Assembly: GCA_044377675.1 (NCBI GenBank)
Contig: JBILYP010000007.1
Coordinates: 32,670-96,669 of the forward strand
Direction of reading: 5' to 3'
DNA from: Crocinitomicaceae bacterium
Lineage (GTDB): Bacteria; Bacteroidota; Bacteroidia; Flavobacteriales_D; Crocinitomicaceae
Length of the DNA stretch: 64,000 nucleotides
The notes under the pieces are model-generated. The model was not told the origin of the DNA and made no database searches. It was given only the letters and a program-made list of their open reading frames with translations. Shown piece after piece: positions 28,983 through 52,280 of the stretch. A program made the translations under genes and the position numbers. The number at the start of each line of letters is the position of its first letter. The stretch's first letter is position 1.

Positions 28983-30764
28983 TTAGTTGGGTTGTGCATA
29001 TTTTCTTTTACGCAGGTAATAGATCAAAAACCCTAAAAGAATAATAATCGTTACGGGCAAGAGCATATTAATGAATCGCAACATATTCGCTTTCTTTTGA
29101 ACTTTTTTCTTGTCAATCGGACGAAGGTCTATTTGTTTACTTCGGATATCAATAATCGAGTTTTCACCCATCATATAATCCACTAGATTTTGAAGAAATT
29201 CTTGGTTTCCAAATATCAACGGAACGTTCATTTCAACCAATTTTGGATCATACTTTAGGTCATTAATTCCGATAGGACGATACATAAATTTCCCTTCCTT
29301 GGTTTGGGTTGAATCATATTGATTTTTTATCCATGAGCCATTTCCAATAAGAACTACTTTCCCTTCTTTCCTTGCCTTATCAATGAATTTTGCATCAGGA
29401 TTTTTGGCAAAATCATCCACAATTCTATTTTTAAAATGGGATTGGAATTTACCTTCAACCAGTCCAGCCAGGCATAGTTTATTGTTTTTATCTTCTGTGT
29501 TTTCAACTAGTTTAGGATTGTCTTTCATCAGACGAGGCATTTCTAGACTTATAATTGGTGCCATACCCTGAGAGTTTGAATTGGTGGAACTCGTTAAAAT
29601 AGGTGACGCTGCAATATCGGGTTGTTTAACAAATTCAATTCTACTCGCGTATTTCAGGAGTACTGGTTCAACATTTCTTGATGTTGGATGGTCTGTAGGA
29701 CTTGCCATTATGTAATAATACCAGGGAGCGAGGGCATTTTTTGCATAAGGGAATAACATTGGAGCACAATTGACATCAAGGACATAATCATCATGAAGTT
29801 TTAATCCATAATCATAGAGCATTTTATCTAATCCGGTGTTTACTCTACTGGAATAAGTAACTCCTTTTGCCTTTAATGAATCGGCATTGAAATCAAGTGC
29901 ATCAACAAAACACATGAGTTTACCCCCACGCATTACAAATTGATCAATAACATATAGATCTTTCATGCTAAACGCTTGTTTTGGCGCAGCAATAATCAAT
30001 CCGTCCAATTCATCCAGAGAAGCTATCGAATCATTGATACGAACATCTTTAATTTTGTAGTAAGGTTTTAAAAGTGATCGTGCGCGAATAGTCTGAGCAT
30101 AGCTAAGCTCGCCATGACCTTGTAAAAAACCAATTTTTGGTTTGGTTTTCTGAATCGACCTTCTAATGGAGCTAATAATGTTATATTCAAGATTATTGAT
30201 AGCTTGGTCAATTATTTCTGTTATTTCATTTAATGCCAAGGGCTTACCACTTTGTGATCCGGGTAAAAACTGAATGGTATTTACTGTTGTTCCACCATAA
30301 TCAATCGTTGCTCCTGGCCATAAAAGCAATTGATTTTGTGAACCATCTTTGATGTAGGAGAGATCCAGAGGTATAATTCCCTTTCCTTGGTCGTATAAGT
30401 TTTTAAAAAGTTCTTTTTTTTCTTCTTCGGTTCCTTTGTTCGGATCTATAAAAATATACTCAATTCGATCACCAACAATTGATTTGAATTCCTTTAAACG
30501 ATCTTCTAAAGTGGTTCTGAATAATCTAATTTCAGCCGGTAAATTTCCATCAAGGTATATTTTGATACTTAATCGATTTTCGAAATTATTTTTATTTTTT
30601 AGAAATTGAATTGTACCATCAGAAAGTGAATATCGTTGATCCGAAGTAGTATCAATTCTAAAGTATAAATAAGCTCCAAGAACATTTACCAAAATGAGTG
30701 CGCCTGCTAAAACCCCTAAAAAGGTCCAATTGTAAAAGCGATCTGTATATTTCTTTATATTCAT
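28983..30764 (-). CDS. gldG: gliding motility-associated ABC transporter substrate-binding/accessory protein GldG
   Basis: 593 aa with N- and C-terminal TM anchors around a large external domain. Immediately follows gldF (1-nt gap). Confidence 0.75.
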   Translation of the reverse strand: MNIKKYTDRFYNWTFLGVLAGALILVNVLGAYLYFRIDTTSDQRYSLSDGTIQFLKNKNNFENRLSIKIYLDGNLPAEIRLFRTTLEDRLKEFKSIVGDRIEYIFIDPNKGTEEEKKELFKNLYDQGKGIIPLDLSYIKDGSQNQLLLWPGATIDYGGTTVNTIQFLPGSQSGKPLALNEITEIIDQAINNLEYNIISSIRRSIQKTKPKIGFLQGHGELSYAQTIRARSLLKPYYKIKDVRINDSIASLDELDGLIIAAPKQAFSMKDLYVIDQFVMRGGKLMCFVDALDFNADSLKAKGVTYSSRVNTGLDKMLYDYGLKLHDDYVLDVNCAPMLFPYAKNALAPWYYYIMASPTDHPTSRNVEPVLLKYASRIEFVKQPDIAASPILTSSTNSNSQGMAPIISLEMPRLMKDNPKLVENTEDKNNKLCLAGLVEGKFQSHFKNRIVDDFAKNPDAKFIDKARKEGKVVLIGNGSWIKNQYDSTQTKEGKFMYRPIGINDLKYDPKLVEMNVPLIFGNQEFLQNLVDYMMGENSIIDIRSKQIDLRPIDKKKVQKKANMLRFINMLLPVTIIILLGFLIYYLRKRKYAQPN

Positions 30765-30765
30765 T

Positions 30766-31497
30766 TTATTTCCTGTAAGATTTTAAAACAGTCATTGCTG
30801 AAAAAAGGAAAAATCCGATTAAACTTATAAAATAGACTAAATCACTTGTATCTATAACCCCTTTTTTGATAGAATCATAATGTGTAGTCATCCCAAATGC
30901 GCGAACAATTGTATCAAATTTACCCATGAGATTGTAAGAGCCCAATAAATTAAATCCATCATAAAATAGCCAGCACAAAAACATCGATAGAATAAACGCC
31001 ACAATTTGACTAGAAGTAATTGAAGAAGCAAAAATACCAATGGAAATAAATGAAGCACCTAATAAAACAAGTCCAATATAAGACGTGATTGTGGCTCCCG
31101 TGTCAATAATTCCAACTGGATCACCTAAATAATACATGGTGAAATAATAAACCAATGTAGGTGCCAAAGCTATCAAAAGCAATGTGACGGACGCGGCATA
31201 TTTTGCAAGTAAAATCTGCAAATCAGATATTGGCCGAGTAAACAATAGTTCAATCGTACCTGTGCGTTTCTCCTCTGCGATCGACCGCATGGTTATTGCA
31301 GGAATTAAAATAAGGAAAATGATGGGCGAAAGATTAAAAAACGGGATCAAATCTGCTTCAACTCCTTCTAATAAATTCGTATTATAAGAGATTACCCAAT
31401 GAAATAATCCGGAAGCAATGAGGTAAATTAATATAAATACATATCCAATGATGGAGCTTAAAAAACTCTTTATTTCCTTTAGATAAAGTGCCAGCAT
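30766..31497 (-). CDS. gldF: gliding motility-associated ABC transporter permease GldF
   Basis: 243-aa ABC-2 type permease with 6 TM helices, paired with gldG. Confidence 0.75.
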   Translation of the reverse strand: MLALYLKEIKSFLSSIIGYVFILIYLIASGLFHWVISYNTNLLEGVEADLIPFFNLSPIIFLILIPAITMRSIAEEKRTGTIELLFTRPISDLQILLAKYAASVTLLLIALAPTLVYYFTMYYLGDPVGIIDTGATITSYIGLVLLGASFISIGIFASSITSSQIVAFILSMFLCWLFYDGFNLLGSYNLMGKFDTIVRAFGMTTHYDSIKKGVIDTSDLVYFISLIGFFLFSAMTVLKSYRK

Positions 31498-32622: not shown

Positions 32623-34032
32623 TTATTTTAATGTTGTAGGACAAACAAAATTTGTTCGTGCAATGTTCGTTTTTGCAATCGCTGAGTAGCCTCCAATGAC
32701 ATCTTTTACTTCACTAAAACCACGAGATTTTAAAATAGATGCGGCAATAATACTTCTGTAACCACCAGCACAATGAAGGATAAACGGTTCATTTTTTGGA
32801 AATAAGTTCATTTTTTCGTTGATAAAATCCAATGGAATACTCGGTACATTTTCAACGTGCTCCGCTTCGTATTCGCCCGGTTTACGTACATCGAAAACAA
32901 GTGAATCTTTTGCTAATTCTTTTTCTAGCTCCTCCGCCGTAATTCGCTCAATGATATCTAAATTTTTACCGTCTTTTTTCCATGTTTCAATTCCTCCTTC
33001 CAAATAGCCAATCACATTGTCGTATCCAACCCGAGATAATCGCTTGATTGTTTCTTCTGTTTTATCTAAATCTGTAATTAAAACAATTTTTTGTTTGATA
33101 TCGGGAATTAATGCGCCAACCCACGGGGCAAATTGACCCTCTAAACCGATACTTACACTACCAGGAATAAACCCCGTTGCAAAATCAGAAGCGGTTCGCG
33201 TATCGAGAATTAGTATTTCTGGTTCGTTCATAATTGACTCAAAATCAGCAATGGACAACGGTTTCATTCCTCTTTCAAGTACGGCATTGTATGAATCATA
33301 CCCGGATTTATTCAATGCTACGTTCATACCAAAATAGGCAGGGGGTGGCAGGAGTCCATCTGTCACTTCCTGTATAAAATCACTTTCAGTCATTTCTTCT
33401 CGTAAGGCATAATTCGTGCGCTTTTGATTTCCAAGCGTATCAGTTGTTTCTTTTGACATGTTTTTCCCGCAGGCACTTCCTGCTCCATGTGCTGGATAAA
33501 CAATAACATCGTCAGGTAATGTCATGATTTTTGAACGCAAGGATTGATACAGAAGCCCGGCCAATGCTTCTTGGGTCATCGATGCTGCTTTTTGCGCTAA
33601 ATCGGGTCTTCCAACATCTCCGATAAACAAGGTGTCACCCGAAAAAAGGGCGTATTCTTTACCGTTTTCATCGAATAATAAAAAACAGCTAGACTCCATA
33701 GTATGACCCGGAGTATGTAACACTTTGATGGATATTTTACCAACTTTCAATACTTCCCCATCACCGGCTATGTGCACAGGATATGATGGATCGGCATTTG
33801 GCCCATAAACAATAGTTGCACCAGTTTGCTTTGATAAATCAAGGTGGCCACTCACAAAATCAGCGTGAAAATGTGTTTCCAAAATGTATTTTATACGAAC
33901 ATTATCTTGCTTCGCTCTATCAATATAGGGTTGGGTTTCTCTCAAAGGGTCGATGATTACTGCCTCATTTTCTGAGACGATATAATAGGCACCTTGTGCC
34001 AAACAACCTGTATAGATTTGTTCTATTTTCAT
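32623..34032 (-). CDS. MBL-fold persulfide-dioxygenase-like protein fused to two rhodanese domains (CstB-like architecture)
   Basis: HFHADFVSGH metal motif at the N-terminus. The middle rhodanese-like domain has no active-site Cys. The C-terminal rhodanese carries HCAGGYRS. Confidence 0.8.
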   Translation of the reverse strand: MKIEQIYTGCLAQGAYYIVSENEAVIIDPLRETQPYIDRAKQDNVRIKYILETHFHADFVSGHLDLSKQTGATIVYGPNADPSYPVHIAGDGEVLKVGKISIKVLHTPGHTMESSCFLLFDENGKEYALFSGDTLFIGDVGRPDLAQKAASMTQEALAGLLYQSLRSKIMTLPDDVIVYPAHGAGSACGKNMSKETTDTLGNQKRTNYALREEMTESDFIQEVTDGLLPPPAYFGMNVALNKSGYDSYNAVLERGMKPLSIADFESIMNEPEILILDTRTASDFATGFIPGSVSIGLEGQFAPWVGALIPDIKQKIVLITDLDKTEETIKRLSRVGYDNVIGYLEGGIETWKKDGKNLDIIERITAEELEKELAKDSLVFDVRKPGEYEAEHVENVPSIPLDFINEKMNLFPKNEPFILHCAGGYRSIIAASILKSRGFSEVKDVIGGYSAIAKTNIARTNFVCPTTLK

Positions 34033-35075: not shown

Positions 35076-36521
35076 CTAGTATTGCCTGAATAAGTCGTTG
35101 CTATTTCCTCCAAAATGTTCTTGGTTGAATTGATTCGGGTTATCTACAGATCCATTTACGGTATTTCGCTTGGATAAAATCGCCTGCCAACCTTGATTCT
35201 TTGTTTCTCCAATCATATCAGAATGAAGCAAGCGATAGGTGTTGTTTACTAAATCAGGATTATAGAAAATAAAACGCTTATTACTGAACATTCCAATTTT
35301 ATTATATTGCCAAATTTCATAGGGATATTCGGAAGGAGATGTTTCTTTTTGAACAACCGTTGTGGGCGAGCCATATTTTAAATAGACTCTTCCTCGGTCT
35401 GTTTCGTAACCATCTTGAAAGTTATTGGAATAAAGTCGTTGTACATAGTGTACCTGTTGCTTGTAAGCCATCCAAGCTTCATATGGTTTTGCTTGATTTG
35501 TTCTAATCCAATAGGCTTGAATGTGTTTTCTGGATTGTGAATTATCTTTTAATTTAAGGGTCGAAATAATATTTAATATCTCTGTTTGTTGAGAAATTGG
35601 TATTAAACTCTCTAAAAAATAGGAAACACTATCTTCTGTAATAGATTGCTGAAATGCAGGATCCAAAACGAGATTATCCATAGAAATATTGATTTCTAAA
35701 TCATTACTTCTTTCAAAAATGTATGATTGTCGTGCCTTTTCATTTTTTGATCGATCTAGTATCGAATAAACGAGCTCATATTTTCCAGTGGGTAGATTGG
35801 CGATATCAATTCCTCTAATAATTGGAACAATAGGGGATGTATTGTGTTTTGTAAATGTTTCGAATTCAATAAGCCCAGTTGTCGAACCTTCTTGAATAAT
35901 CTCTTGCTTCAGTACAAATTGAGAATCTGCGATCAAGTGAGAATTATATATTTCAAAATAAACAGGAAGGGTAGATAATTGACTGGGAAAAAAAGAAGAT
36001 AAACGAGGTAAGATATAATAACCAGATTTGGTGAAATTGGATTGTTCTTCTGTTCTTTTTGCGTATTCTGCTATCTCCAGGTCTGAAAAGGCAATTTTAC
36101 CACCCAAATTTTTACACGTTATTTCACTTTCAGCTTTTATGGCCTTTGACGTTGGATTTAATACATCTGTTAATTCTACTGTTAAATTGTGTTTTCCTGT
36201 AGGAAGTGCAAATCGAATGACGTCATAGAAATCTTCAATAATACTATCTTTCATCAATGGTGATTCTAGAATATAGACATCTGAAAAGTGAACTGAATCT
36301 TTCTGACTAACTGAAATACGCACTGCAATTTTTCCTTGTAATCCGCCTGATTTTCCTTCGTATTTTACCGATCGTGCAACAAATTGCAGATATATTTCGG
36401 CGTAATCTCCTACTTGATCATTATAAAATTGCTTGGTATCAAGGTACGCTTTGAGTTGGCCAAAACTATATTTCGATAGAAAAATAGTCGATAATACAAA
36501 AAGAATTACAGCTGCTTTCAT
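35076..36521 (-). CDS. GWxTD domain-containing secreted protein
   Basis: Signal peptide. C-terminal motif DGYETDRGRVYLKYGSP...YPYEIWQY matches the GWxTD domain pattern, with Y in place of W. Confidence 0.65.
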   Translation of the reverse strand: MKAAVILFVLSTIFLSKYSFGQLKAYLDTKQFYNDQVGDYAEIYLQFVARSVKYEGKSGGLQGKIAVRISVSQKDSVHFSDVYILESPLMKDSIIEDFYDVIRFALPTGKHNLTVELTDVLNPTSKAIKAESEITCKNLGGKIAFSDLEIAEYAKRTEEQSNFTKSGYYILPRLSSFFPSQLSTLPVYFEIYNSHLIADSQFVLKQEIIQEGSTTGLIEFETFTKHNTSPIVPIIRGIDIANLPTGKYELVYSILDRSKNEKARQSYIFERSNDLEINISMDNLVLDPAFQQSITEDSVSYFLESLIPISQQTEILNIISTLKLKDNSQSRKHIQAYWIRTNQAKPYEAWMAYKQQVHYVQRLYSNNFQDGYETDRGRVYLKYGSPTTVVQKETSPSEYPYEIWQYNKIGMFSNKRFIFYNPDLVNNTYRLLHSDMIGETKNQGWQAILSKRNTVNGSVDNPNQFNQEHFGGNSNDLFRQY

Positions 36522-40818: not shown

Positions 40819-41547
40819 CTAATTTTTTTTGTATTCTTTTATCTCCAGTAAGAATTCAGGATGTGTTTCGATGTGATTCCCAATTACTACGAGAGAAGCA
40901 CCTGCGTCATGATAATCTTTTATTTGTTGAATCGTTTTAATGCCCCCACCGATAATTAACTGTGTGTCGATTTGAGAAATCATTTTTACTGCTTCGATCG
41001 GAATACTTGATTTCGCTCCACTTCCAGCATCTAAATAAGTGGCTTCGTGTCCTAAAAATTTACCTGCCAATGCCGTTTTATACATAATCGCATGCTCTGT
41101 TGAAGGTATGGGTGTTGTTTGACTCACGTATGCCACAGAACTATTTGTCCCTCCGTCAATGAGTAAATAGGAGGTAGGTATTACTTTTAATTTCATTTTT
41201 GCAATGTCCTCGGCCGATTCAATTTGACTTTCAATCAAATAATACGGGTTTCGTCCTGAAATGAGGCATAAAAATAATAAGGCGTCTGCTTCTGGCGATA
41301 GTTGCTTTGGCGAACCGGGGAAAATTATCAGTGGAATCGAACAGTTTTTCTTGATAAAACTAACTGTAAATTGAAATTGTTCACGTGTGCCAGTACTGCC
41401 GCCAATAAAAATAAGGTCGATTGCTGCTTTTTCGCAATTGCTGATGATGTTTTGTAGTTCGTTTACATCTTTCGATTTGTCAGGATCAACTAAAACAGCA
41501 ATTCCTTTGGTGAATTCAAAAATGGTGGAACTATTTTGTTTGATCAT
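40819..41547 (-). CDS. geranylgeranylglyceryl/heptaprenylglyceryl phosphate synthase family protein (PcrB/GGGPS)
   Basis: Motifs VDPDK, FIGGSTG, IFPGS, SGRNPYYL, YLDAGSGA and IGGGI. Trimmed to MIKQNSS, which gives a 4-nt overlap with the upstream ORF. Confidence 0.8.
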   Translation of the reverse strand: MIKQNSSTIFEFTKGIAVLVDPDKSKDVNELQNIISNCEKAAIDLIFIGGSTGTREQFQFTVSFIKKNCSIPLIIFPGSPKQLSPEADALLFLCLISGRNPYYLIESQIESAEDIAKMKLKVIPTSYLLIDGGTNSSVAYVSQTTPIPSTEHAIMYKTALAGKFLGHEATYLDAGSGAKSSIPIEAVKMISQIDTQLIIGGGIKTIQQIKDYHDAGASLVVIGNHIETHPEFLLEIKEYKKN

Positions 41548-42125
41548 GCGGTAGTATTGACGCAAATTAAGGAATTGTTTTCTTCCAAAATTAAAAAATG
41601 GTAAATCTTTTCTGGTTTGAGCCTTGAATAACCGGTCCAACTATCATCACTTATTCTTGTTGTCATTAACTCCTTTTTATAATCAATTGTTTTGTCATCC
41701 AATAATTTTATAAGACATTCCTTAATACACCAAACAATCGTTTTATCCTTTAATGTATGTACAAAGCTTGATTCATCTTGGTGTAAATACCGTTCAGATA
41801 CTTTTTCTATGCGTTCATGAATTGTTTCTATGTCCAACCCCAAATTTTCTAAACTAGACCAAGCCAATCCAATCCAGTTTTTTGAATGACTAATTGAAAT
41901 TGAATGAGATTTAGAAGCGAAGAAGGGTTTTCCATTTAGGTTATATTCAAGTTTTTCTTTCGGATGAAACATAGTTAGTAAATATGCTATACCCGCTTTT
42001 TCGATCAATCTTTTTTCATTAAATAAAGTCTTTTCTGAATTGCTTTGTGGAATTTTCAATAATTCGGCATCCACCCTTACGAGTGCAATTTTTACGTTAT
42101 TTTTATCAATTAAGATTGCTTTCAA
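41544..42125 (-). CDS. 4'-phosphopantetheinyl transferase superfamily protein
   Basis: NGKPFF...ISISHS...GLDIETI...WCIKECLIK matches the Sfp/AcpS PPTase motifs. Apparent TTG start. Confidence 0.65.
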   Translation of the reverse strand: MKAILIDKNNVKIALVRVDAELLKIPQSNSEKTLFNEKRLIEKAGIAYLLTMFHPKEKLEYNLNGKPFFASKSHSISISHSKNWIGLAWSSLENLGLDIETIHERIEKVSERYLHQDESSFVHTLKDKTIVWCIKECLIKLLDDKTIDYKKELMTTRISDDSWTGYSRLKPEKIYHFLILEENNSLICVNTTA

Positions 42126-42283
42126 GGTTCAAAACTAAAATTTATGATTAAAAGTCTGTGTTTTTTGTAAGGTTAATTAATCTTTTTTTTTGATTTTTTT
42201 AACATTCAATATACATAGTAATTATTTTTTTCTATTTTTACGAACTAAAATTGTGGAAACTCTTTAAACATTAAATATTGTTT

Positions 42284-45200
42284 ATGTTACAAAAATTTAC
42301 ATTTGCGATAGTAACTATTTTTATATCAGTTACTTCTATTTATTCACAGACTGGTTTAGGAATGGTCAAAGGTTCTGTGAGGGATGAAAAAACTAAGGTT
42401 GGTTTAGAGTACTGTAAAGTAGTATTGATTCTTAATGGTTCAACTAAGGCCGGTGCATCAACTGATGAGAAAGGAGAATTTCAAATAAATAGTGTGTCTC
42501 CGGGTACATATGACGTGGAGGTTCGTAGCTCTGATGGTTATCAGCCTTTCAAATTGACTGGATTCAAGGTGATTGGAGACAAAATATCTTTTTTAGATAA
42601 TATTGAGTTAACAAAGCCTAACGATGTTAAGGATTTAGAAGAGTTCAAAATAGTTGTATATAAAGTTCCGTTAATTGATAAGGATGGTGGTGCATCGGGA
42701 GGAACAGTAACTCGTGAGGATATTGGAAGGTTGCCTGTTCGCTCTGCTGCAGGTGTAGCTTCAACTGTAGGTGGTGTAAGTACAAATGAAGGTTCAGGAG
42801 AAATTTCGGTTAGGGGATCACGTTCTGATGGTACTTATTTTTATATCGATGGTATTAAAGTTCGTGGGTCTTCAAATTTACCGAAGTCCTCAATGGAGGA
42901 AGTCTCTGTAATAACTGGAGGTGTACCGGCTAACTATGGTGATGTAACTGGTGGAATCATTGCAATTACCACGCGTGGGCCATCTGCTAAATATTTTGGA
43001 AGTATTGAAGGGGTGAGTTCGGGATTTTATCTTAAAGGTGCAGACAAAGATGGTTATGACGGAAAGGTGTTTGGGTTAGATAAATTTGGATATAACTTAA
43101 TTGAGGGGATGCTTTCTGGTCCGCTTTGGATGCAAAGAGATTCAACAGGAAAGAAAACGAAGCCAAGACTAGGGTTTTTAGCTTCTGTGAATTATACCAA
43201 TGAATTGGATAATCGTCCGTTAGCAGGTGGAAGTTACAGAATTAAAAAGGAAGTAAGAGATAATTTATTAACTAATCCTTTACGGCCAACCTCTACTGGG
43301 TTTGGTACTTTTCATAATGCACTATTCTTGAAGAATTCAGATTTTGAAAAAACGGCATGGAGAATGAATGCTGGTTCAAGTGTATTATCTAGTCAATTTA
43401 AATTAGACGTTAACACAGGTCCTTCTGTAAATCTAACATTTGGGGGATCGTTGAATTATAGTCAAGGAACGAATTATTCCTATGCGGGTTCATTAATGAA
43501 TTTCACGAATTACGGCGTATCCAAGTCACTAGATTGGAGGGTGTTTGGTAGATTAACACAACGTTTCGTTAATAAGGATGAAAATTCTGCTTCAAAGATT
43601 AAATCAGCTAATTATAATATCATGGTCGATTTCTCGAAATCAACAAGCGAGTTTTATGATGCTAATCACAAATATAATTTGTTCAATTATGGCCACGTGG
43701 GTAAATTTGAAACCGAAAGAAGACCATCATACGAATTTGATCCAATTACTCAGACGTATGTTCATAACGGATTCAAGGATGTAGAAGTTAAATTTACTCC
43801 TTCGGAGACAAATGCTGCCTTGGCTGCAATTACAACCCAATATTTTGATATTTACGAGGGTAATCCAACTGGTCGATATGAAAACCTATTTCAAATTCAA
43901 CAAGGTAATGCGCTTCGTAATGGGGATGCTCCCTCAAGTGTTTATGGAATTTGGAGCAATGTAGGTTCTCCATACAATGGTTTTGGTAAATCAGAGAACG
44001 ATCAATTCCGTGTTACAGGTTCAGGTTCTGTTTCAATTGGTGATCATAATATTTCGCTTGGTTTTGAATTTGAGCAACGTATGGATAGAGGCTGGACAAG
44101 TGGTGATTTTGGCCCTGTTGGTATTTGGTCGATTGCTCGTCAATTAGCTAATTTTCATATAGAAGAATTAGATTTGAATAGCTTCGCGATATCTGATTCG
44201 GGTTCTTTTAAGGCAATAACTTATGATAGATTAAATACTGGTTATGCAAATACATCAGGTTCAGGCACCTATGGGGGACAAGAGAACAATGACAATCAAT
44301 CCTTCTTTGATTATAATTTAAGACAAAAATTAGGATTAGATCCTTCAGGATCTGACTATGTTGATATAGATCAATACGACCCAAATATTTATCAATTTGA
44401 TATGTTTTCACCGGATGAATTATTGAATCAAGGGAATTCTTATGTTTCTTATTGGGGATATGATCACACAGGTAAAAAGGTGAAAGGCAATACCGATATC
44501 AACAGTTACTTTAATGACTTTGATGATAATGGTAACTATAAACGATTTGTTGGGGCTTTCCAGCCAGTTTATATGGCTGGTTATTTAATGGATAAATTTG
44601 CTTTTAAAGATATTGTATTTAATGTTGGGGTACGTGTGGATGTTTTCGATGCTAACCAGCCCGTATTGAAGGATCCTTATCTTTTCTTTAATGCACTGAG
44701 CGTGAAAGAAGTTAGAGCCCTGAAGGAATCGGATCCAAATACGTATTCATGGGTAAATCTACCTCAAGGTATGGGTGACGACTATGTTGTGTATGTTAAT
44801 GATGTAAATAATCCATCTGCAATTAACGGATTTAGAACTGGAATGAGCTGGTATAATTCTTCGGGTACTCCTATTGAAGATCCGAAAGTGATTCGTGGTT
44901 CAGCTGGTATTGCTCCATGGTTAACCAATCCTGCTCAGGAAACTCCAAATGAAACGGCATTTCAAGATTATAAAGCTCAAGTGAATGTTATGCCTCGTAT
45001 CGCATTCTCATTCCCTATTTCGGATGAGGCTTCTTTCTTTGCACATTATGATGTGTTAACAAAACGACCAACAACTGGATTTAGATTTAACCCGTATGAA
45101 TATCAGTATATTCAATCTAGAAACGAGGTTATTAATAACGCAAACCTAAAACCAGAAACAACCGTTGATTATGAATTAGGTTTTCAACAAGTTTTGTCTC

Positions 45201-46039
45201 GCACCTCCTCTTTAAAGATTTCTGCGTTCTATAGAGAACAAAGAAACAATGTTCAATTAGTTAATATGTTTGAAGCTTATCCTGCAACTTATAAAACCTA
45301 CGGTAACCGAGATTTTGGTACAGTTAAAGGGTTAACAGTATCTTATGATTTACGTCAAACCGGTAATGTACGTTTAACAGCTGCATATACCCTTCAGTTT
45401 GCTGACGGTACAGGTTCAAATGCTACAACTGCATCTGGATTAATAAATGCAGGTCTACCAAATCTACGTAATATATTCCCGTATGATTTTGATCAGCGCC
45501 ATGCATTCAATGTGACATTTGATTATCGCTATGGTGAAGGAGAAAACTACAGTGGACCAGTTATTGGGAATAAAAGAATTTTGGAGAATTTTGGATTGAA
45601 TATTTTTTCTAACATCAATTCTGGTTCACCATACTCAACTCAAACATTTATCACTGACGAAGGTATTGGTAATTTAAATGCAGGTTTGAGTGGAACATTG
45701 AATGGTTCCAGATTGCCATGGACGTATCGTTTAGATATTCAATTAGACAAAACGTTTAACATTGAATTTGGTAAAGACGAGGACAAGAAAAAAGTTACTT
45801 TCTTAAATGTATACATACGTGTAACGAACCTTTTCAATAAATTTAATATTTTGAATGTTTATCGGGCTACAGGAAACTGGGATGATGATGGATATCTTGC
45901 AGCTGCCGCTAGTCAAACGTCTATTCAAAATCAGATTGATGAGCAATCTTTCAGAGATTTTTATGCAATGAAAGTTCAAAATGCTTTCAATATTAGTGTG
46001 CCTAGAACTATCAGATTAGGTGTTAAATTTGATTTTTAA
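42284..46039 (+). CDS. giant TonB-dependent-receptor-type outer-membrane barrel with N-terminal carboxypeptidase-regulatory-like domain (Oar-like class)
   Basis: Signal peptide, beta-sandwich segment GSVRDEKTKVGLEYCKVVL..GTYDVEV, plug-like segment ISVRGSRSDGTYFYIDGIKV...GGIIAITTRG, a long beta-rich barrel region, and terminal ...RLGVKFDF. ATG at 42284; the track start is TTG at 42278. Confidence 0.8.
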   Translation: MLQKFTFAIVTIFISVTSIYSQTGLGMVKGSVRDEKTKVGLEYCKVVLILNGSTKAGASTDEKGEFQINSVSPGTYDVEVRSSDGYQPFKLTGFKVIGDKISFLDNIELTKPNDVKDLEEFKIVVYKVPLIDKDGGASGGTVTREDIGRLPVRSAAGVASTVGGVSTNEGSGEISVRGSRSDGTYFYIDGIKVRGSSNLPKSSMEEVSVITGGVPANYGDVTGGIIAITTRGPSAKYFGSIEGVSSGFYLKGADKDGYDGKVFGLDKFGYNLIEGMLSGPLWMQRDSTGKKTKPRLGFLASVNYTNELDNRPLAGGSYRIKKEVRDNLLTNPLRPTSTGFGTFHNALFLKNSDFEKTAWRMNAGSSVLSSQFKLDVNTGPSVNLTFGGSLNYSQGTNYSYAGSLMNFTNYGVSKSLDWRVFGRLTQRFVNKDENSASKIKSANYNIMVDFSKSTSEFYDANHKYNLFNYGHVGKFETERRPSYEFDPITQTYVHNGFKDVEVKFTPSETNAALAAITTQYFDIYEGNPTGRYENLFQIQQGNALRNGDAPSSVYGIWSNVGSPYNGFGKSENDQFRVTGSGSVSIGDHNISLGFEFEQRMDRGWTSGDFGPVGIWSIARQLANFHIEELDLNSFAISDSGSFKAITYDRLNTGYANTSGSGTYGGQENNDNQSFFDYNLRQKLGLDPSGSDYVDIDQYDPNIYQFDMFSPDELLNQGNSYVSYWGYDHTGKKVKGNTDINSYFNDFDDNGNYKRFVGAFQPVYMAGYLMDKFAFKDIVFNVGVRVDVFDANQPVLKDPYLFFNALSVKEVRALKESDPNTYSWVNLPQGMGDDYVVYVNDVNNPSAINGFRTGMSWYNSSGTPIEDPKVIRGSAGIAPWLTNPAQETPNETAFQDYKAQVNVMPRIAFSFPISDEASFFAHYDVLTKRPTTGFRFNPYEYQYIQSRNEVINNANLKPETTVDYELGFQQVLSRTSSLKISAFYREQRNNVQLVNMFEAYPATYKTYGNRDFGTVKGLTVSYDLRQTGNVRLTAAYTLQFADGTGSNATTASGLINAGLPNLRNIFPYDFDQRHAFNVTFDYRYGEGENYSGPVIGNKRILENFGLNIFSNINSGSPYSTQTFITDEGIGNLNAGLSGTLNGSRLPWTYRLDIQLDKTFNIEFGKDEDKKKVTFLNVYIRVTNLFNKFNILNVYRATGNWDDDGYLAAAASQTSIQNQIDEQSFRDFYAMKVQNAFNISVPRTIRLGVKFDF

Positions 46040-46065
46040 TTAAGTAGAATATAAACAACAGATAT

Positions 46066-49000
46066 ATGAAAAAGCAATTATTTGCAGCTTTATTCGGAAT
46101 TACAATAGTTACTTCAAATGCGCTCGCGTATTATGGACCTAATGATAAAAGTAATAAGCCTGTTTCTAAACCTAAGGGAGCTAATTGTAGCCCTGCAACA
46201 GCTAAATTATACATGGAGTTTAATGATGTGAAAGCATTAATTGAGCAAGGTGGAAGTATGTTTCAAAACAGACAAGCAGGTGTAGCGGCTTATGAGGTGC
46301 CAAAAGGAAGTAATCTTTTTGCGATTTTTGCTGGTGCTCTTTGGATGGGTGGCACTGACGTAAATGGTCAGTTGAAATTAGCGGCTCTTCGTTACCGTCA
46401 AGGGAATGATTTTTGGCCTGGCCCTTTAACTGTTACTCCAGGAACTGGCACATTTAATCCTGGATCTCCTGTGGGCGATGATGCAATTAGAGATTTTGGT
46501 GAGGCAAATATTGATCCAGATCAGTGTATAGCATTCGATAAATTCTATACAATTAAAAAAGCTGAAGTAATTCGTTTCAATATTTGGTGGGAATGTAACA
46601 ATGGAGTAACAACGGAAGGTTGTGATGATATTACTGTTCCAACCAATGATGAACTAAATAGAATTTATGGATGGCCTGCCCATGGTGATGTTTCAAGAGG
46701 TCAAGATTATTTCTTAGCTCCTTTTTATGATCGCGATGGAGATGGTAATTATAATCCTGACAGCGGTGATCATCCATGGTATGATGATATTTTAGGACGA
46801 GATGATATTGAATGTGGAGTAGACCGTAGGGTTTCATTATATGGAGATGAAACGCATTGGTGGGTCTTCAATGACAAAGGTAATATTCACACTGAAACAA
46901 ATGGTGATCCTATTGGAATGGAAATACGTGCTCAAGCTTTTTCGTTTGCAACGAATGACGAGATTAATCGAATGACGTTCTATAATTATGAATTGATTAA
47001 CCGAGGTACTCAAACATTGTATAATACGTATTTCTCTCAGTTTTTAGATGCCGATTTAGGAAATTATGCAGATGACTATACTGGGTGTGATGTATCTCGT
47101 GGGTTAGGATATATGTATAATGGTGATTTGAATGATGAAAGTGATGGTGGTAAATTAGGATATGGTGAGAATCCTCCGGCTATAGGATGTGATTTCTTCG
47201 AAGGACCTTATCAAGATGCTGATGGGATTGACAATACAGGGCCATATTTTGACGAGGCAACTCAAACTGAAGTTGTTCCAACCGTAGTTGAAGCTTTGGC
47301 AAATGATGGTATTATATACAAAGGAATAGGTATAGGATATAGTGATGGAATTGTTGATAATGAGCGTTTTGGAATGAGAAGATTTACTTATTTTACATCA
47401 ACATCTGCTTATCCATATAATGATCCAGGACCTGCATCTGAATATTATAATTTCATGAAAGGAAATTGGGCTAATGGTTCTCAGATGTTTTATGGTGGTT
47501 TAGGTTATACAGGTTCAAATGGAGTAACTACAACTGAATCAAGTTATATGTTTCCTGGAGATTCAGATCCATTACATTGGTCAACTGGTGGAGAAGATAT
47601 GACATCAAATCCTAATTTCGCTAATGGGTGGAGTGAGGCAACTAGTAACAATCCTGCTGGAGATAGACGTTTTGTTCAATCTGCTGGCCCGTTTACATTG
47701 AAACCAGGTGCTATTAACAATATTACTGTGGGTATTGTATATGGTAGAAGTACAGATGGCGGATTGATGGCTTCTGTAGATGCAATGAAAAGAGCAGATA
47801 CGAAAGCTCAAGCATTATTCGATGCATGTTTTAAAATTCTTTCTCCACCTGATGCTCCAAAAGTTTTAATTCAAGAATTAGAAAATGAATTAATTATCAT
47901 GTTGGAAAATCCTTCTTCTTCAAACAATTATCAAGAAGGGTACAAAGAATTGGATGAAGTAAACATTCCAGACCCAACAGTTGATCGTTATTATCGTTTT
48001 GAAGGATATCAAATCTTCCAATTGAAAAGTTCAGATGTTTCTGTTGCTGATATTTCTGACCCAACGAAAGCTCGTTTAGTAGCACAATGTGATATAAAAA
48101 ATGACATATCTCGTTTAATTAATTTTGAATTTGATGAATCACTTGGGTTTTCTGTACCAGTAGAAAAAGTGGATGGTGATAACACAGGCATTCGTCATTC
48201 ATTCAAAGTGACAGATGATGCATTTGCACAAGGACAAAGAACATTGGTAAATCATAAAACATATTATTATGTAGCTGTTGCATATGCATATAATCAATTT
48301 AAAAAATATGATCCAAATGATCCTGAATTGTTGGATGGTCAAAAAATTCCTTTCATATCCTCTCGTTTGAATTATGACGGTACTGCTATCAGCGCATATG
48401 AAGCTGTTCCACATAGTCCAATTCCTGAGGCTGGTGGTACAATGCAAATGATTGAATATGGTTCTTCCCCGCAAATCACGCGCTTAGATGGTTATGGAAA
48501 TGGAAATCGCTCATTGGATTTCACTCCTGCAACATTGACCCAAATTTTAACGGATGGTTTCATGGAGAATCCAACGTATGATTATGGAAAAGGCCCAATT
48601 AATATCAAAGTGGTTGATCCATTGGCATTAGCACCGGGTTATTTTGAATGCAAATTCAGAGATTATACAGCACCAACAACAGGTAATGGAACTGATACAG
48701 CGAGTTGGGTTGTTTATCAATACGACAAAAAAGGTGGTTCAATCATCGATTCAGTTAGTTCAGATCAAACAATAGCTGTAGATAACGAGCAAATAATTCC
48801 AAAATGGGGAATTTCTGTTCAGATTCATCAAGAGAATTATTATTTTGCCTCGGGATCTGGAAATGTTTCTGCTAAATATACAGATATGATCGAGTCATCA
48901 ATTGAATTTGCGGATTCTTCCAAAAGATGGTTAACAGGAGTTTCTGATAATGATGCTTATTTTCCAACTAACTGGGTTCGCTCAGGAGATTACGCACCTG

Positions 49001-50253
49001 AAACAGATGTTAATAATGCTGCATACGAGTGTTTACCTGATGGTCCGGCTTATCTTGACCCATGTCAATATAGAGATGAGTCCGGTGTGGATCCTGACCA
49101 GAAATATGAGGCTTTATTAACTGGAACAATTGCACCGCACAGATTGGTTGGTTACCAAGCGGATTACATGCCTTTGGCTTATTATGGTACATTCACCGGT
49201 TCAAGTAAAACAAATGCATCCATTAGCTTTTTACCGAGTGTGAATATTATTTTGACCGCTGATAAATCAAAATGGACACGTTGTCCAGTAATTGAGTTGG
49301 GAAGAAATACGGCATTGAATGTTGGTTCTGCAGCACCAGGAGCAATGCGTAAGAGTACCAGTGTGAACAAAGAAGGCCAACCGGATGGGACAGGGAATGG
49401 AATGGGCTGGTTCCCGGGATATGCAGTGGATCTAGAATCTGGAGCACGTTTGTACATGGCATTTGGTGAGAATTCATTCCTAGGTGGAGAAAACGGAGCT
49501 GATATGAAATGGAATCCAACGGATCGTTTTATCAGTAATGTTGGAACACCACTGATGGGTGGAATGCATGCTATTTATGTATTTAGTTACAAACAAAAAT
49601 CAATAAACGGTTTTGCAAACGGATTTGATTTTCCAGCGTATGTTCCGTCTGAAGCAGAAGTAAATGGATCAAACTTCTTACAAAACAAGTGGTTGGAGGT
49701 TGAAACAAATAACACGCAGAGCAAAAAAGAATTATACGGTAGTTTATCATGGGTTTCTTATCCATTGTTACGTCCAACACAATCGTTGTTGTCAACTGAT
49801 GTAACAATCAAGCTTCGAGTGAATAAAGAATACAAGAACTTTGTAGGGTCTGGCGAGAATGGTGGCAAACCAATGTACTCTTGGAGTATGGATGATATTG
49901 CAACCGTAACAGCAGATAAGGATCAATTAGCAGAAGCGTTAAAAATGATTAATGTTGTACCAAATCCTTATTACGCATTCTCTGAGTATGAGAGAAATCG
50001 ATTAGACACACGTGTAAAAATCACTAATCTACCTAAAATATGTACAATTAATATTTATACAGTAAATGGAAAATTGGTTAGAACCTTTAAAAAAGATAGC
50101 GAAATCACTTCTCAAGATTGGGATTTAACAAATAACAAAAGTATTCCCGTTGCAAGTGGTGTATACTTAATACATGTTGAGATTCCAGGTATTGGAGAAA
50201 GGGTATTGAAGTTTATTGGAGGTATGCGTCAAGTTGATTTACAAGGAATTTAA
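46066..50253 (+). CDS. 1395-aa secreted protein of unknown function with a T9SS C-terminal sorting domain
   Basis: SPI-type signal peptide (TSNALA/YY). About 1290 aa with no assignable catalytic motif. DxDxDG-like site FYDRDGDGNYNPDSGDHP. C-terminal beta-sandwich with VVPNP...INIYTVNGKLV...SGVYLIHVE. Confidence 0.75.
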   Translation: MKKQLFAALFGITIVTSNALAYYGPNDKSNKPVSKPKGANCSPATAKLYMEFNDVKALIEQGGSMFQNRQAGVAAYEVPKGSNLFAIFAGALWMGGTDVNGQLKLAALRYRQGNDFWPGPLTVTPGTGTFNPGSPVGDDAIRDFGEANIDPDQCIAFDKFYTIKKAEVIRFNIWWECNNGVTTEGCDDITVPTNDELNRIYGWPAHGDVSRGQDYFLAPFYDRDGDGNYNPDSGDHPWYDDILGRDDIECGVDRRVSLYGDETHWWVFNDKGNIHTETNGDPIGMEIRAQAFSFATNDEINRMTFYNYELINRGTQTLYNTYFSQFLDADLGNYADDYTGCDVSRGLGYMYNGDLNDESDGGKLGYGENPPAIGCDFFEGPYQDADGIDNTGPYFDEATQTEVVPTVVEALANDGIIYKGIGIGYSDGIVDNERFGMRRFTYFTSTSAYPYNDPGPASEYYNFMKGNWANGSQMFYGGLGYTGSNGVTTTESSYMFPGDSDPLHWSTGGEDMTSNPNFANGWSEATSNNPAGDRRFVQSAGPFTLKPGAINNITVGIVYGRSTDGGLMASVDAMKRADTKAQALFDACFKILSPPDAPKVLIQELENELIIMLENPSSSNNYQEGYKELDEVNIPDPTVDRYYRFEGYQIFQLKSSDVSVADISDPTKARLVAQCDIKNDISRLINFEFDESLGFSVPVEKVDGDNTGIRHSFKVTDDAFAQGQRTLVNHKTYYYVAVAYAYNQFKKYDPNDPELLDGQKIPFISSRLNYDGTAISAYEAVPHSPIPEAGGTMQMIEYGSSPQITRLDGYGNGNRSLDFTPATLTQILTDGFMENPTYDYGKGPINIKVVDPLALAPGYFECKFRDYTAPTTGNGTDTASWVVYQYDKKGGSIIDSVSSDQTIAVDNEQIIPKWGISVQIHQENYYFASGSGNVSAKYTDMIESSIEFADSSKRWLTGVSDNDAYFPTNWVRSGDYAPETDVNNAAYECLPDGPAYLDPCQYRDESGVDPDQKYEALLTGTIAPHRLVGYQADYMPLAYYGTFTGSSKTNASISFLPSVNIILTADKSKWTRCPVIELGRNTALNVGSAAPGAMRKSTSVNKEGQPDGTGNGMGWFPGYAVDLESGARLYMAFGENSFLGGENGADMKWNPTDRFISNVGTPLMGGMHAIYVFSYKQKSINGFANGFDFPAYVPSEAEVNGSNFLQNKWLEVETNNTQSKKELYGSLSWVSYPLLRPTQSLLSTDVTIKLRVNKEYKNFVGSGENGGKPMYSWSMDDIATVTADKDQLAEALKMINVVPNPYYAFSEYERNRLDTRVKITNLPKICTINIYTVNGKLVRTFKKDSEITSQDWDLTNNKSIPVASGVYLIHVEIPGIGERVLKFIGGMRQVDLQGI
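49948..50250 (+). other. T9SS C-terminal sorting domain (type A-like) of the 1395-aa protein
   Basis: INVVPNPYY...KICTINIYTVNGKLVRTF...WDLTNNKSIPVASGVYLIHVEIPGIGERVLKFI follows the PNP / IYD..G / SGVY / K-hydrophobic pattern of Por secretion tails. Confidence 0.65.
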
Positions 50254-50273
50254 ATTAAGTAAGCACTATTGAT

Positions 50274-51338
50274 ATGAAAAATAGATTGAATAAAACATTA
50301 GTAGGATTGGTTGCAGCAGGTGTTGTACTATCTTCAAGTTTATTTGCTGGAAATGAAGACAGAATTGGTTCTGCTGGTGCATCTCATTTGTTAATTAATC
50401 CATGGGCTAGGGGTTCAGCAATGGGTGATGCAGGTATTGCTAATATGAATGGATTAGAAGCTACTTTCACAAATGTTGCGGGTTTGGCTTTTACAGATAA
50501 AACTCAAATTAAGTTCAATTATTCAAATTGGATGGGTAATGCTGGAATTAGTTTAAATAGTGCTGGATTTGCTCAACGAATATCTGAATCTAGTGTGTTT
50601 TCAGTAAGTGTACAATCTTTAAATTATGGTGATATTCCAATTACTACGGTTGCAAATCCTGAAGGAAATATAGGTTTCTTTTCTCCCCGCGCTAACATTT
50701 TTAATGTTGCTTATGCAAAGGAGTTTTCATCATCTATCTCTGGTGGTATTAATTTCAAAGTTATTTCAGAAAACATCTCTAATATGAAAGCCACAGGAGT
50801 TGCAATTGATGCGGGTATTCGATATGTAACAGGGGAACAAGATCAAATAAAATTTGGAATAGCCTTAAAAAATGTTGGTCCTGTAATGAAATATAGAGGT
50901 GATGGTTTGGCACAACAAGTTTCCTATGTATCTACTGGTTTTATCGGAAGTTTGGAAAATAGATCTGCAACATACGAAATGCCTTCTTTGTTATCAATTG
51001 GAGGTTCATATGATTTCATCTTCACTGAAGCCAATAAATTGAACGTTGCTTTTGCGTTTACTGCTAATTCTTTTTCAAAAGATCAGTTTAGATTAGGTTT
51101 AGATTATGCGATGACCACTGATAAGATGGCATTTAATTTAAGAGGAGGATATATTTACGAAAAAGGTCTCTATTCTGCAGAGAATAGATCTAATGCATTA
51201 TTAGGTCCTACAGCAGGATTTTCTATAGATGCGCTTGTTGGAAAAAGTAAAAGTGCATTAGGATTAGAGTATTGTGCTCGTTTTGCTGGAGTTTTCGGCA
51301 TCATACACACAATTGGAGCTACTATTTCTTTGAAATAA
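50274..51338 (+). CDS. PorV/PorQ-family (FadL-like) outer-membrane barrel protein
   Basis: Signal peptide, then the N-terminal motif GSAGASHLLINPWARGSAMGDAGIANMNGLEATFTNVAGLAF, similar to my recollection of the PorV (LptO) N-terminal region. Alternating beta-strand body of 354 aa. Confidence 0.65.
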   Translation: MKNRLNKTLVGLVAAGVVLSSSLFAGNEDRIGSAGASHLLINPWARGSAMGDAGIANMNGLEATFTNVAGLAFTDKTQIKFNYSNWMGNAGISLNSAGFAQRISESSVFSVSVQSLNYGDIPITTVANPEGNIGFFSPRANIFNVAYAKEFSSSISGGINFKVISENISNMKATGVAIDAGIRYVTGEQDQIKFGIALKNVGPVMKYRGDGLAQQVSYVSTGFIGSLENRSATYEMPSLLSIGGSYDFIFTEANKLNVAFAFTANSFSKDQFRLGLDYAMTTDKMAFNLRGGYIYEKGLYSAENRSNALLGPTAGFSIDALVGKSKSALGLEYCARFAGVFGIIHTIGATISLK

Positions 51339-51414: not shown

Positions 51415-51888
51415 ATGTCACAAATAAATTATTATACTGCAGAAGGCTTGCAAAAATTGAAAAATGAATTGTATAATATGAAGACAGTTCAGCGGCCATC
51501 TATTTCTGAACAAATTGCTGAAGCCCGTGATAAAGGAGATTTATCGGAAAATGCTGAATATGATGCTGCTAAAGAGGCTCAGGGTTTGTTAGAGATGAAA
51601 ATTTCTAAATTCGAAAATATTATTGCTAATGCTCGGTTAATCGATGAGACGCATATTGATAATTCCAAAGTTTTTATACTTTCCAATGTGAAGATAAAAA
51701 ATATAGCGAATGGAATGGAAATGAATTATATTTTAGTAGCTGAAAATGAAGCGGATATTAAACTCAAAAAGATTTCCGTTGATTCACCGATTGGAAAAGG
51801 ATTATTGGGTAAAAAAGTGGGTGATACCGCTGATGTTCAAACACCAGGTGGTATTCTTCGATTCGAGATTTTGAATATTTCCCGTTAA
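51415..51888 (+). CDS. greA: transcription elongation factor GreA
   Basis: 157 aa with an N-terminal coiled coil (AEARDKGDLSENAEYDAAKE) and a C-terminal FKBP-like domain. Confidence 0.92.
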   Translation: MSQINYYTAEGLQKLKNELYNMKTVQRPSISEQIAEARDKGDLSENAEYDAAKEAQGLLEMKISKFENIIANARLIDETHIDNSKVFILSNVKIKNIANGMEMNYILVAENEADIKLKKISVDSPIGKGLLGKKVGDTADVQTPGGILRFEILNISR

Positions 51889-52280
51889 TGTCAACAGTGT
51901 TTTCTGAAATTGTAGCTGGTGAAATCCCATGTTACAAGATTGCTGAGAATGATAATTTTTTGGCCTTTTTGGATGTAAATCCATTAGTTGCTGGTCATAC
52001 CTTGGTGATTCCAAAAATTGAACAAGATTACATTTTTGATCTAGATAATCAAGTATTAGAATCTTTGATCGTGTTTTCAAAGGAAGTGGCGGTTAAGTTA
52101 AAAAAAGCTATTCCATGCAAAAGGATAGGAGTTTCGGTAATTGGACTGGAAGTTCCACATGCTCATATCCATTTAATACCAATTAACTCCATTCAGGACA
52201 TGAATTTTAGTAAGGAGAAGGCTTCTTTTAGTCCATCAGAATTGGAAGATCTTCAAAATCAAATTTTGTCTGTGAATTGA
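51888..52280 (+). CDS. HIT family hydrolase
   Basis: Histidine triad HAHIHLIP. The ATG overlaps the greA TAA by 1 nt. Confidence 0.88.
   Translation: MSTVFSEIVAGEIPCYKIAENDNFLAFLDVNPLVAGHTLVIPKIEQDYIFDLDNQVLESLIVFSKEVAVKLKKAIPCKRIGVSVIGLEVPHAHIHLIPINSIQDMNFSKEKASFSPSELEDLQNQILSVN

Follow-up and report, generated by a model that had tools for sequence, protein, structure and literature searches.

Why would an apparent type IX secretion system (T9SS) substrate be encoded between a predicted TonB-dependent transporter and an outer-membrane barrel related to PorV and PorQ? The question is raised by three adjacent genes in a 64,000-nucleotide (nt) stretch of DNA from a freshwater Crocinitomicaceae bacterium (assembly GCA_044377675.1, contig JBILYP010000007.1, forward-strand positions 32,670 to 96,669). 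This whole stretch is referred to as the window, and its coordinates are used throughout unless another locus is named. The three genes, together called the trio, lend their names to their products and are as follows (lengths in amino acids, aa).

42284-46039, + strand: gene 1, 1251 aa counted from ATG, predicted TonB-dependent transporter
46066-50253, + strand: gene 2, 1395 aa, highly probable T9SS substrate
50274-51338, + strand: gene 3, 354 aa, predicted PorV/PorQ-family outer-membrane barrel

The trio is one conserved unit. Our preferred reading of it, to which we assign a probability of roughly 45%, is that the three products would make up an outer-membrane module: gene 2, exported by the T9SS, would be held at the cell surface by gene 3 and would capture a substrate for import by gene 1.

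A conserved three-gene unit and its proteins

The genes of the trio lie on the same strand and are separated by only 26 nt (genes 1 and 2) and 20 nt (genes 2 and 3). They follow an AT-rich leader and are closed by a terminator-like hairpin, all as given in the first-pass annotation, which was made from the sequence alone and had taken them for a single transcription unit. The neighbourhoods of related genes agree with this. Relatives of gene 2 were found in at least 595 genomes in a scan with one genome per species; the loci inspected come from the best 80 of these genomes, and all the comparative loci but one belong to metagenome bins. Gene 1 lies directly upstream and gene 3 directly downstream of 46 full-length gene 2 homologues, at identities down to 41%. 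Carriers of the trio include Crocinitomicaceae, other Flavobacteriales, Bacteroidales bins, Lentimicrobiaceae and one bin labelled 'Chlorobi', and the complete trio is present in the cultured Crocinitomix catalasitica ATCC 23190 (locus L042). Median gaps in the orthologous trios are about 28 and 29 nt (roughly 37 loci), and 32 of 42 orthologous loci have a hairpin resembling a terminator 3' of gene 3, with stem sequences that differ by lineage. With its order kept in 46 loci, the trio is a conserved unit beyond chance neighbourhood. Of the three outcomes that the first-pass annotation had named as refuting it, which concern this order, a PorU identity of gene 2 and a failure of gene 3 in PorV-family models, none was obtained. 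Of the 54 loci with gene 3, 51 also have, 3' of it and on its strand, a greA gene and a gene of the HIT family (51415-52280 in the window). This holds across orders, and the conserved block is transporter, cargo, barrel, greA and HIT.

The family of gene 2 is large. A search of representatives with aa 22-1221 as the query returned 7130 clusters at 50% identity (E<=0.001), 1863 of them at E<=1e-30, and none of the roughly 240 listed homologues bears a precomputed Pfam domain. NCBI entries identical to the trio proteins come from metagenome bins of Crocinitomicaceae, where they are called hypothetical.

Gene 1 starts with a signal peptide (aa 1-22) and carries the following features.

42365-42583, + strand: CarboxypepD_reg N-terminal extension, aa 28-100 (Pfam, E 5.6e-11)
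42638-42679, + strand: candidate TonB box EEFKIVVYKVPLID, aa 119-132, before the plug and conserved in the orthologue alignment
42704-42955, + strand: Plug (PF07715), aa 141-224 (Pfam, E 2e-8)

Both Pfam domains are matched by 31 of 31 gene 1 orthologues, and the stretch at aa 119-132, which looks like a TonB box, is conserved among them as E-x-E-V-V-x-Y-K-V-P-L-I-D. The predicted barrel and loops account for about 1000 residues, and the protein ends in ...KFDF, with Phe as the last residue. Searched against the PDB, a profile of the 31 orthologues matched the plugs of Cir, PirA and YncD, together with the N-terminal extensions of SusC-type transporters (6ytc, 9hfj). The window protein itself reached no Pfam barrel model; the generic barrel PF00593 (TonB_dep_Rec_b-barrel) was matched by 8 of the 31 orthologues and also by the orthologue at L084, and weak NCBIfam matches to transporter barrels fall at aa 943-1041. 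These features identify gene 1 as a predicted TonB-dependent transporter, in what appears to be a subfamily of its own. It had been called Oar-like in the first-pass annotation. The CarboxypepD_reg domain and the plug stand, as does a long predicted barrel region; the Oar class is not supported, as no Oar-type barrel family occurs among the Pfam matches of the 31 orthologues at E<=0.01 and the N-terminal domain is equally of the SusC type. Membership of SusC/RagA was rejected: no SusC/RagA NCBIfam model matched gene 1 at E<=0.1, and its presumed partner, gene 2, has no SusD-like Pfam match.

Gene 2 has a signal peptidase I-type signal peptide (aa 1-21, MKKQLFAALFGITIVTSNALA/YYG, with no lipobox cysteine by eye) and a passenger of about 1270 aa, followed by a C-terminal sorting domain. 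AlphaFold2 models were obtained for aa 22-600 (predicted local distance difference test, pLDDT, 80; predicted template modelling score, pTM, 0.85) and for aa 590-1395 (pLDDT 86, pTM 0.83), and the parts listed below are taken mainly from them.

46204-47829, + strand: modelled beta-supersandwich region with helical insertions, about aa 47-588
about aa 599-959, + strand: modelled beta-sandwich domains
49060-49932, + strand: modelled alpha/beta core, about aa 999-1289, conserved, with the motif GMGWFPGYA
49951-50220, + strand: C-terminal sorting domain, aa 1296-1385, modelled as a seven-stranded immunoglobulin (Ig)-like sandwich of the type A kind
50221-50250, + strand: C-terminal 10 residues GMRQVDLQGI, aa 1386-1395, a conserved stretch beyond the final strand of that domain

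The sorting domain is best recognised by its fold. Foldseek aligned it with the tail of PorZ (5m11, E 2.9e-6, 26% identity) and with the tails of NucA and RemZ in the SprA translocon (8glk_D and 8gl8_D, probability 1.00). Model scores lie below the cut-offs, at 22.3 bits against 23 for TIGR04183 and 14.8 against 27 for Pfam Por_Secre_tail (PF18962), and NCBI names the homologues of gene 2 T9SS type A sorting domain proteins. No type B tail model of NCBIfam matched at E<=0.1. The PorZ model NF052228 aligns with the tail only (28.4 bits against a cut-off of 260, E 5.6e-7), and this score is higher than that of the generic TIGR04183. Type A tails are generally less than 40% identical to one another (PMC12618676). 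Within the gene 2 family, conservation peaks in the sorting domain, with a majority-residue fraction of 0.72 against 0.55 for the passenger. The 10 residues beyond it follow a family consensus R-P-x-D-L-x-x-F, in which R1388 is near-invariant and the D-L pair is conserved; most members end in Phe, and the stretch has no structure in the AlphaFold2 model. In the window, genes for the gliding-motility ABC transporter components gldG (28983-30764) and gldF (30766-31497) lie on the - strand 11 kb upstream of the trio and reach the NCBIfam equivalog cut-offs, so the genome belongs to a gliding/T9SS lineage; locus L001 has a PorP/SprF gene near the trio. Export of gene 2 by the T9SS, as a substrate with a type-A-like tail, is highly probable.

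The passenger resembles little. Outside the tail, gene 2 has no Pfam, NCBIfam or PDB sequence match (PDB searched by single sequence and by profile). Its N-terminal half gave weak Foldseek matches (template modelling, TM, score 0.2-0.3) to the non-catalytic N-terminal sandwich domains of GH15-like, GH94, GH116 and related enzymes, its beta-supersandwich fold being of the type seen in this position, non-catalytically, in several glycoside hydrolases and phosphorylases. The core at aa 999-1289 found nothing in PDB or BFVD fold searches. For both halves, the tail and generic FN3/Ig-like domains apart, only these low-TM sandwich matches were retrieved from the two databases. Two blocks are highly conserved, aa 251-350 and aa 1101-1150, with many invariant Asp, Glu, His and Ser residues. 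Examples of invariant residues in the passenger are N269, D270, H275, E1135, S1137, D1146 and H1168. The first-pass annotation is borne out in describing gene 2 as a cargo with a T9SS sorting tail, without a recognisable catalytic or adhesin family and with no likeness to SusD. It had also named in advance a match to PorU or peptidase C25 as what would turn the locus into an ordinary porU-porV pair. The PorU equivalog NF033707 scored 15.3 bits against 420, on the tail only, with no Peptidase_C25 match and no caspase-like fold, and PorU identity was rejected. The same applies to PorZ: its model fails off the tail, no propeller-like matches were obtained, and Foldseek aligns 111 columns of 5m11.

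Gene 3, with a signal peptide of about aa 1-25, had been predicted from the sequence alone to be PorV-like, and it does pass the PorV-family models. It scores 154.5 bits against the PorV/PorQ family model NF033709 (cut-off 90) and 50 against Pfam PorV PF19572 (cut-off 27). It is not PorV proper (equivalog NF033710, 86.6 bits, cut-off 250) and not PorQ proper (equivalog NF033711, 83.8 bits, cut-off 220). All 30 of 30 gene 3 orthologues likewise pass the family model and fail both equivalogs, and weak PorP matches occur in just 7 of the 30. The only solved relative is PorV of Flavobacterium johnsoniae (6h3i_F, E 6.5e-10 by single sequence and 2.4e-17 by profile). By these profile scores, gene 3 is assigned to the PorV/PorQ family of FadL-fold outer-membrane barrels as a member that is neither PorV nor PorQ. 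A BamG-like identity was considered and rejected, the PDB profile search yielding PorV alone.

Gene 2 also occurs outside the trio. Twenty full-length homologues have neither barrel beside them and keep the same sorting domain. In a neighbour-joining tree they form one Crocinitomicaceae-wide orphan clade of 12 members (L022-L051) and several independent duplications from the trio copy, and hierarchical clustering did not separate trio copies from orphan copies. A second gene 2 copy sits between gene 3 and greA at L068 (13363-17427) and L019 (1732-5970), and in one bin a copy within a trio coexists with an orphan (L064 and L081). Neighbours of the orphans include an M28 gene directly upstream in seven loci (e.g. 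L026 6623-7897), an alpha/beta-hydrolase and an M24 peptidase downstream in two loci (L083, L085), and a divergently adjoining TonB_C-domain gene in one (L085 7079-7888). The peptidase neighbours are a possible hint of peptide or protein use. No more PorV-family genes were found in 1.46 Mb of fetched flanks, where matches to gene 1 amounted to three weak fragments or distant matches; no canonical porU-porV pair was located in these flanks. The paralogues bear on the idea of a dedicated barrel put forward in the first-pass annotation. Cognate pairing holds up, and the idea itself is already known from PorQ for PorZ, PorV for PorU and PorP/SprF for type B cargo. That the barrel is hard-wired to a single cargo is probably wrong: because the barrel-less paralogues share the sorting domain of gene 2, gene 3 probably serves more than one cargo.

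The proposed module and its alternatives

Sorting domains of type A or type B are bound by PorV and PorP/SprF proteins, which are FadL-family barrels of 14 strands (PMC9143113). PorU and PorZ retain their tails, seated on PorV and PorQ (PMC10202324). A cargo of type B depends on a cognate shuttle that is encoded immediately downstream and produced in stoichiometric amounts with it, and orphan cargos may share a shuttle (PMC12618676). We propose that gene 2 would cross the inner membrane by Sec and then pass the T9SS translocon by means of its type-A-like sorting domain. It would bypass the general carrier PorV, as well as clipping and release by PorU, with gene 3 taking over. Gene 2 would thereby keep its sorting domain and stay tethered to the surface through gene 3, as PorZ does on PorQ, PorU on PorV and SprB on SprF. 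The tail of gene 2 is likened to that of PorZ and is the best conserved part of the protein, and a retained, specifically recognised tail is therefore favoured; the 10 residues at its end possibly contact the barrel. We consider it probable that gene 3 is the cognate carrier or anchor of gene 2.

The tethered protein would work with gene 1, a transporter with very long extracellular loops. Gene 1 invariably stands ahead of the pair, in the order of susC and its partner, which suggests that the tethered protein serves the transporter, and we lean, a little less firmly, towards a functional coupling of genes 2 and 3 to gene 1. Gene 2 would be an extracellular capture or lid subunit passing a macromolecular substrate, possibly a glycan or peptide, to gene 1 for TonB-energised import, genes 2 and 3 would replace the SusD lipoprotein of a SusCD pair, and paralogues of gene 2 elsewhere in the genome would share the gene 3 anchor. 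Import, as opposed to another role, is a tentative assignment. More tentative again is the notion of a single stable machine in the outer membrane, made of all three proteins and of an undescribed kind: a transporter with a non-lipoprotein lid or capture subunit. We infer that the sorting domain is retained, that gene 3 binds gene 2 and that there is contact with gene 1, as well as what the substrate is and which way it is transported.

Several observations weigh against this proposal. The contacts within the trio are inferred rather than direct, and in the published view every type A tail uses the general PorV (PMC12618676), so gene 2 might do so too. The N-terminal half of gene 2 resembles sandwich domains of glycan-active enzymes so weakly (TM 0.2-0.3) that a glycan-binding role is a mere hint, and conservation of the passenger is high for a protein that binds a substrate. 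Regulators, degradative enzymes and SusD-like genes are absent from the vicinity of the trio. Its neighbours are housekeeping genes, with greA adjoining: upstream in the window are FtsK, a PcrB-like prenyltransferase and a phosphopantetheinyl transferase, and downstream are greA, the HIT protein and a threonine aldolase. Such a context is unusual for nutrient-uptake loci and suits a core envelope function equally. In two loci with gene 2 at about 80% identity (L006 and L077, both metagenome bins), gene 3 does not follow gene 2, and greA and HIT are missing as well; the place of gene 3 is taken by a superoxide dismutase or LuxE-like gene (L006 12204-13244, L077 1750-2736). The break after gene 2 is either a real rearrangement or a chimera of the bin or assembly.

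In another explanation, genes 2 and 3 would be a cognate cargo-anchor pair, and gene 1 would share their transcript without joining them in a complex. Gene 2 would then serve as an enzyme or adhesin at the surface, with a new fold, acting for example on a surface or environmental polymer, and uptake by gene 1 would be independent. This explanation is unlikely, though far from negligible. It is favoured by the invariant Asp, Glu, His and Ser residues of aa 251-350 and aa 1101-1150, which fit active or metal sites, and by the barrel-less paralogues, which have no gene 1 nearby and in some cases adjoin M28 or M24 peptidase genes. T9SS enzymes encoded next to transporters are, moreover, common in polysaccharide utilisation loci. 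However, gene 1 is linked as tightly as gene 3, in 46 of 46 loci and with gaps of about 28 nt, and no enzyme family or fold was detected in gene 2. Gene 1 also co-varies with its partners as strongly as they do mutually: the pairwise distance matrices of the three genes correlate at r of about 0.91 (0.91-0.92), against 0.57-0.70 with the adjacent greA and HIT genes, a co-variation that is weak support because this control is short (287 aa), so that the higher r of the trio may in part come from better signal.

Alternatively, the trio might serve envelope biogenesis, or the T9SS as an accessory module, instead of nutrition; a core envelope role is somewhat favoured by the housekeeping context and the high conservation of the passenger. 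Genes 2 and 3 would then form a PorZ-PorQ-like attachment pair handling surface glycan or lipopolysaccharide, and gene 1 would serve secretion or surface assembly, as is reported for PorF. By sequence and structure the tail of gene 2 is nearest to that of PorZ, gene 3 scores equally for PorV and PorQ, and the absence of regulators and the ancient vertical conservation by greA fit as well. A TonB-dependent-receptor-like barrel, PG0534 (PorF), is listed as a T9SS component in Porphyromonas gingivalis (PMC5445135, PMC9143113), and FadL-fold barrels that hold large extracellular proteins beside a big barrel recur in Bacteroidota, e.g. BamG-BamH-BamA (PMC12611786). We nevertheless find this explanation improbable. 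Gene 2 has no beta-propellers and meets the PorZ model only in its tail (28.4 bits against 260); the complete plug and TonB-box-like motif of gene 1 are what gated transporters typically have; and repeated duplication of gene 2 fits substrate-facing proteins better than core machinery.

Export of gene 2 through gene 1 would be another use of the layout of CarboxypepD_reg, plug and long barrel that gene 1 has in common with Oar, which is required for PopC secretion (PMC6434023). We regard this as very improbable because gene 2 has a complete T9SS sorting domain of its own, folded like those of substrates bound to the translocon; no orthologue among the 31 matches an Oar-type barrel model, and a folded multidomain protein of 150 kDa is unlikely to pass a 22-strand barrel. 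Finally, the order of a large protein with a retained-type tail and a PorV-family barrel, with lengths near those of PorU and PorV, is what a porU-porV locus of divergent sequence would present. Sequence and fold refute it, leaving next to no chance for this explanation: the PorU equivalog reaches only the tail of gene 2, without Peptidase_C25, the PorV equivalog stops at 86.6 bits of the 250 needed, and Foldseek reaches PorU (6za2) only via the tail and Ig-like parts, at a TM score of 0.09. The module of transporter, tethered cargo and anchor remains the reading that we prefer.

Control elements and flanking genes

The non-coding AT-rich stretch before gene 1 spans 42126-42283 (158 bp), up to a divergent gene, and may be longer if the start of that gene lies downstream of its first TTG. 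The open reading frame (ORF) of gene 1 opens with a TTG at 42278, two codons ahead of the ATG. The G+C content of the trio, 0.33-0.38, is the same as that of its surroundings. Three candidate control elements were recognised.

42172-42204, + strand: inverted repeat GTTAA-N23-TTAAC, possible operator or promoter-upstream element
42226-42241, + strand: box TTTTTCTAT(A/T)TTTAC, about 45 nt 5' of the start codon
51363-51386, + strand: terminator-like hairpin AAGAGAGCC-TCACAG-GGCTCTCTT, between gene 3 and greA

In an alignment of 14 orthologous upstream regions, the repeat is kept and the box is almost invariant. The repeat has one match in the window, with 0.2 expected by chance and at least one match in 18 of 100 shuffles. 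The Bacteroidota -7 promoter consensus is TAnnTTTG, from which the box differs at one position; it is likely to be such a -7 element, and together the repeat and the box (42172-42241) may represent a regulator site plus promoter element. The hairpin has nine Watson-Crick pairs, or ten with one G-T pair, five of them G-C, and is followed by a T-rich tail.

Divergent from the trio on the - strand (40819-42125) are genes for a PcrB-like geranylgeranylglyceryl/heptaprenylglyceryl phosphate synthase and a 4'-phosphopantetheinyl transferase. Genes matching this pair in size and position were seen in about 22-27 related loci. Farther away on the same strand, an ORF of 760 aa (22195-24477) has no Pfam match at E<=1e-6 and no NCBIfam match at E<=1e-15, and a 481-aa GWxTD-domain protein (35076-36521; TIGR04514, E 1.8e-18) is encoded beside a glycosyltransferase gene. 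Scans of the window for Rfam families and tRNA genes were empty.

Comparison with known systems

In P. gingivalis, porZ and porQ are not known to be neighbours, whereas the cargo and barrel of the trio always are, and are linked to a TonB-dependent transporter. The trio shares with PorZ-PorQ and PorU-PorV (PMC10202324) a T9SS surface protein that would be held by a 14-strand barrel through a retained type A tail; it differs in a passenger without beta-propellers or a C25 peptidase and in a gene 3 that fails both orthologue models. With the type B systems SprB-SprF and Fjoh_3952-Fjoh_3951 (PMC12618676, PMC9143113), it shares the order of a cargo and a dedicated FadL-fold shuttle, with stoichiometric pairing implied. 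Orphan type B cargos that share one shuttle are a parallel to the 20 barrel-less gene 2 paralogues. Unlike these systems, gene 2 has a tail of type A fold, near threshold for TIGR04183, and gene 3 belongs to the PorV/PorQ family and not to PorP/SprF.

SusC-SusD likewise places a transporter with a carboxypeptidase-regulatory-like extension ahead of a presumed extracellular partner in an operon. Here, however, the partner is not a SusD-like lipoprotein but a T9SS substrate of 1395 aa whose proposed barrel anchor is a separate protein, and glycoside hydrolases and regulators are lacking. Oar of Myxococcus (PMC6434023) and PorF/PG0534 (PMC5445135) provide examples of TonB-dependent-type barrels tied to protein secretion; the layout of Oar is also that of gene 1, but gene 2 has its own T9SS signal and gene 1 matches no Oar-type model. 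In BamG-BamH (PMC12611786, PMC12578637), the extracellular part of a FadL-fold barrel holds a large extracellular protein near a large barrel, much as proposed for the trio. There, BamA is the large barrel, and BamH is a lipoprotein instead of a substrate of the T9SS. The gene 3 profile finds PorV, not BamG, in the PDB. The pep25/lbp26 genes of Flavobacterium collinsii were also considered and are unrelated to the trio. An apparent 'PorV2' in the literature proved to be a superscript reference number.

In the literature searched, we found no description of the trio, of PorV-like barrels with TonB-dependent transporters, or of a Crocinitomicaceae T9SS. The elements are already known singly, namely transporters with surface partners, tails retained on PorV-family barrels, and shuttles encoded beside their cargo. 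What appears to be undescribed is the three-part operon, the pairing of a type-A-like cargo with a private barrel of the PorV/PorQ family, and the passenger family. Present in at least 595 species-level genomes, the gene 2 family has no domain annotation or solved relative, and with more than 7000 clusters at 50% identity and no Pfam coverage it would, if our reading is correct, be a new and widespread class of surface proteins. The cultured strain of Crocinitomix catalasitica, with its complete trio, opens an experimental route.

Relative to SusC-SusD, the constant linkage to a transporter suggests a lipoprotein-independent way of placing a partner on a Bacteroidota transporter, which bears on substrate capture by these abundant freshwater bacteria, and the T9SS would, if this holds, serve the assembly of nutrient-uptake complexes. 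Relative to the PorV and PorQ pairs, the trio is a natural system for asking what decides between cleavage and retention of a tail. Relative to the type B systems, it would extend the rule of cognate shuttles to type A sorting domains.

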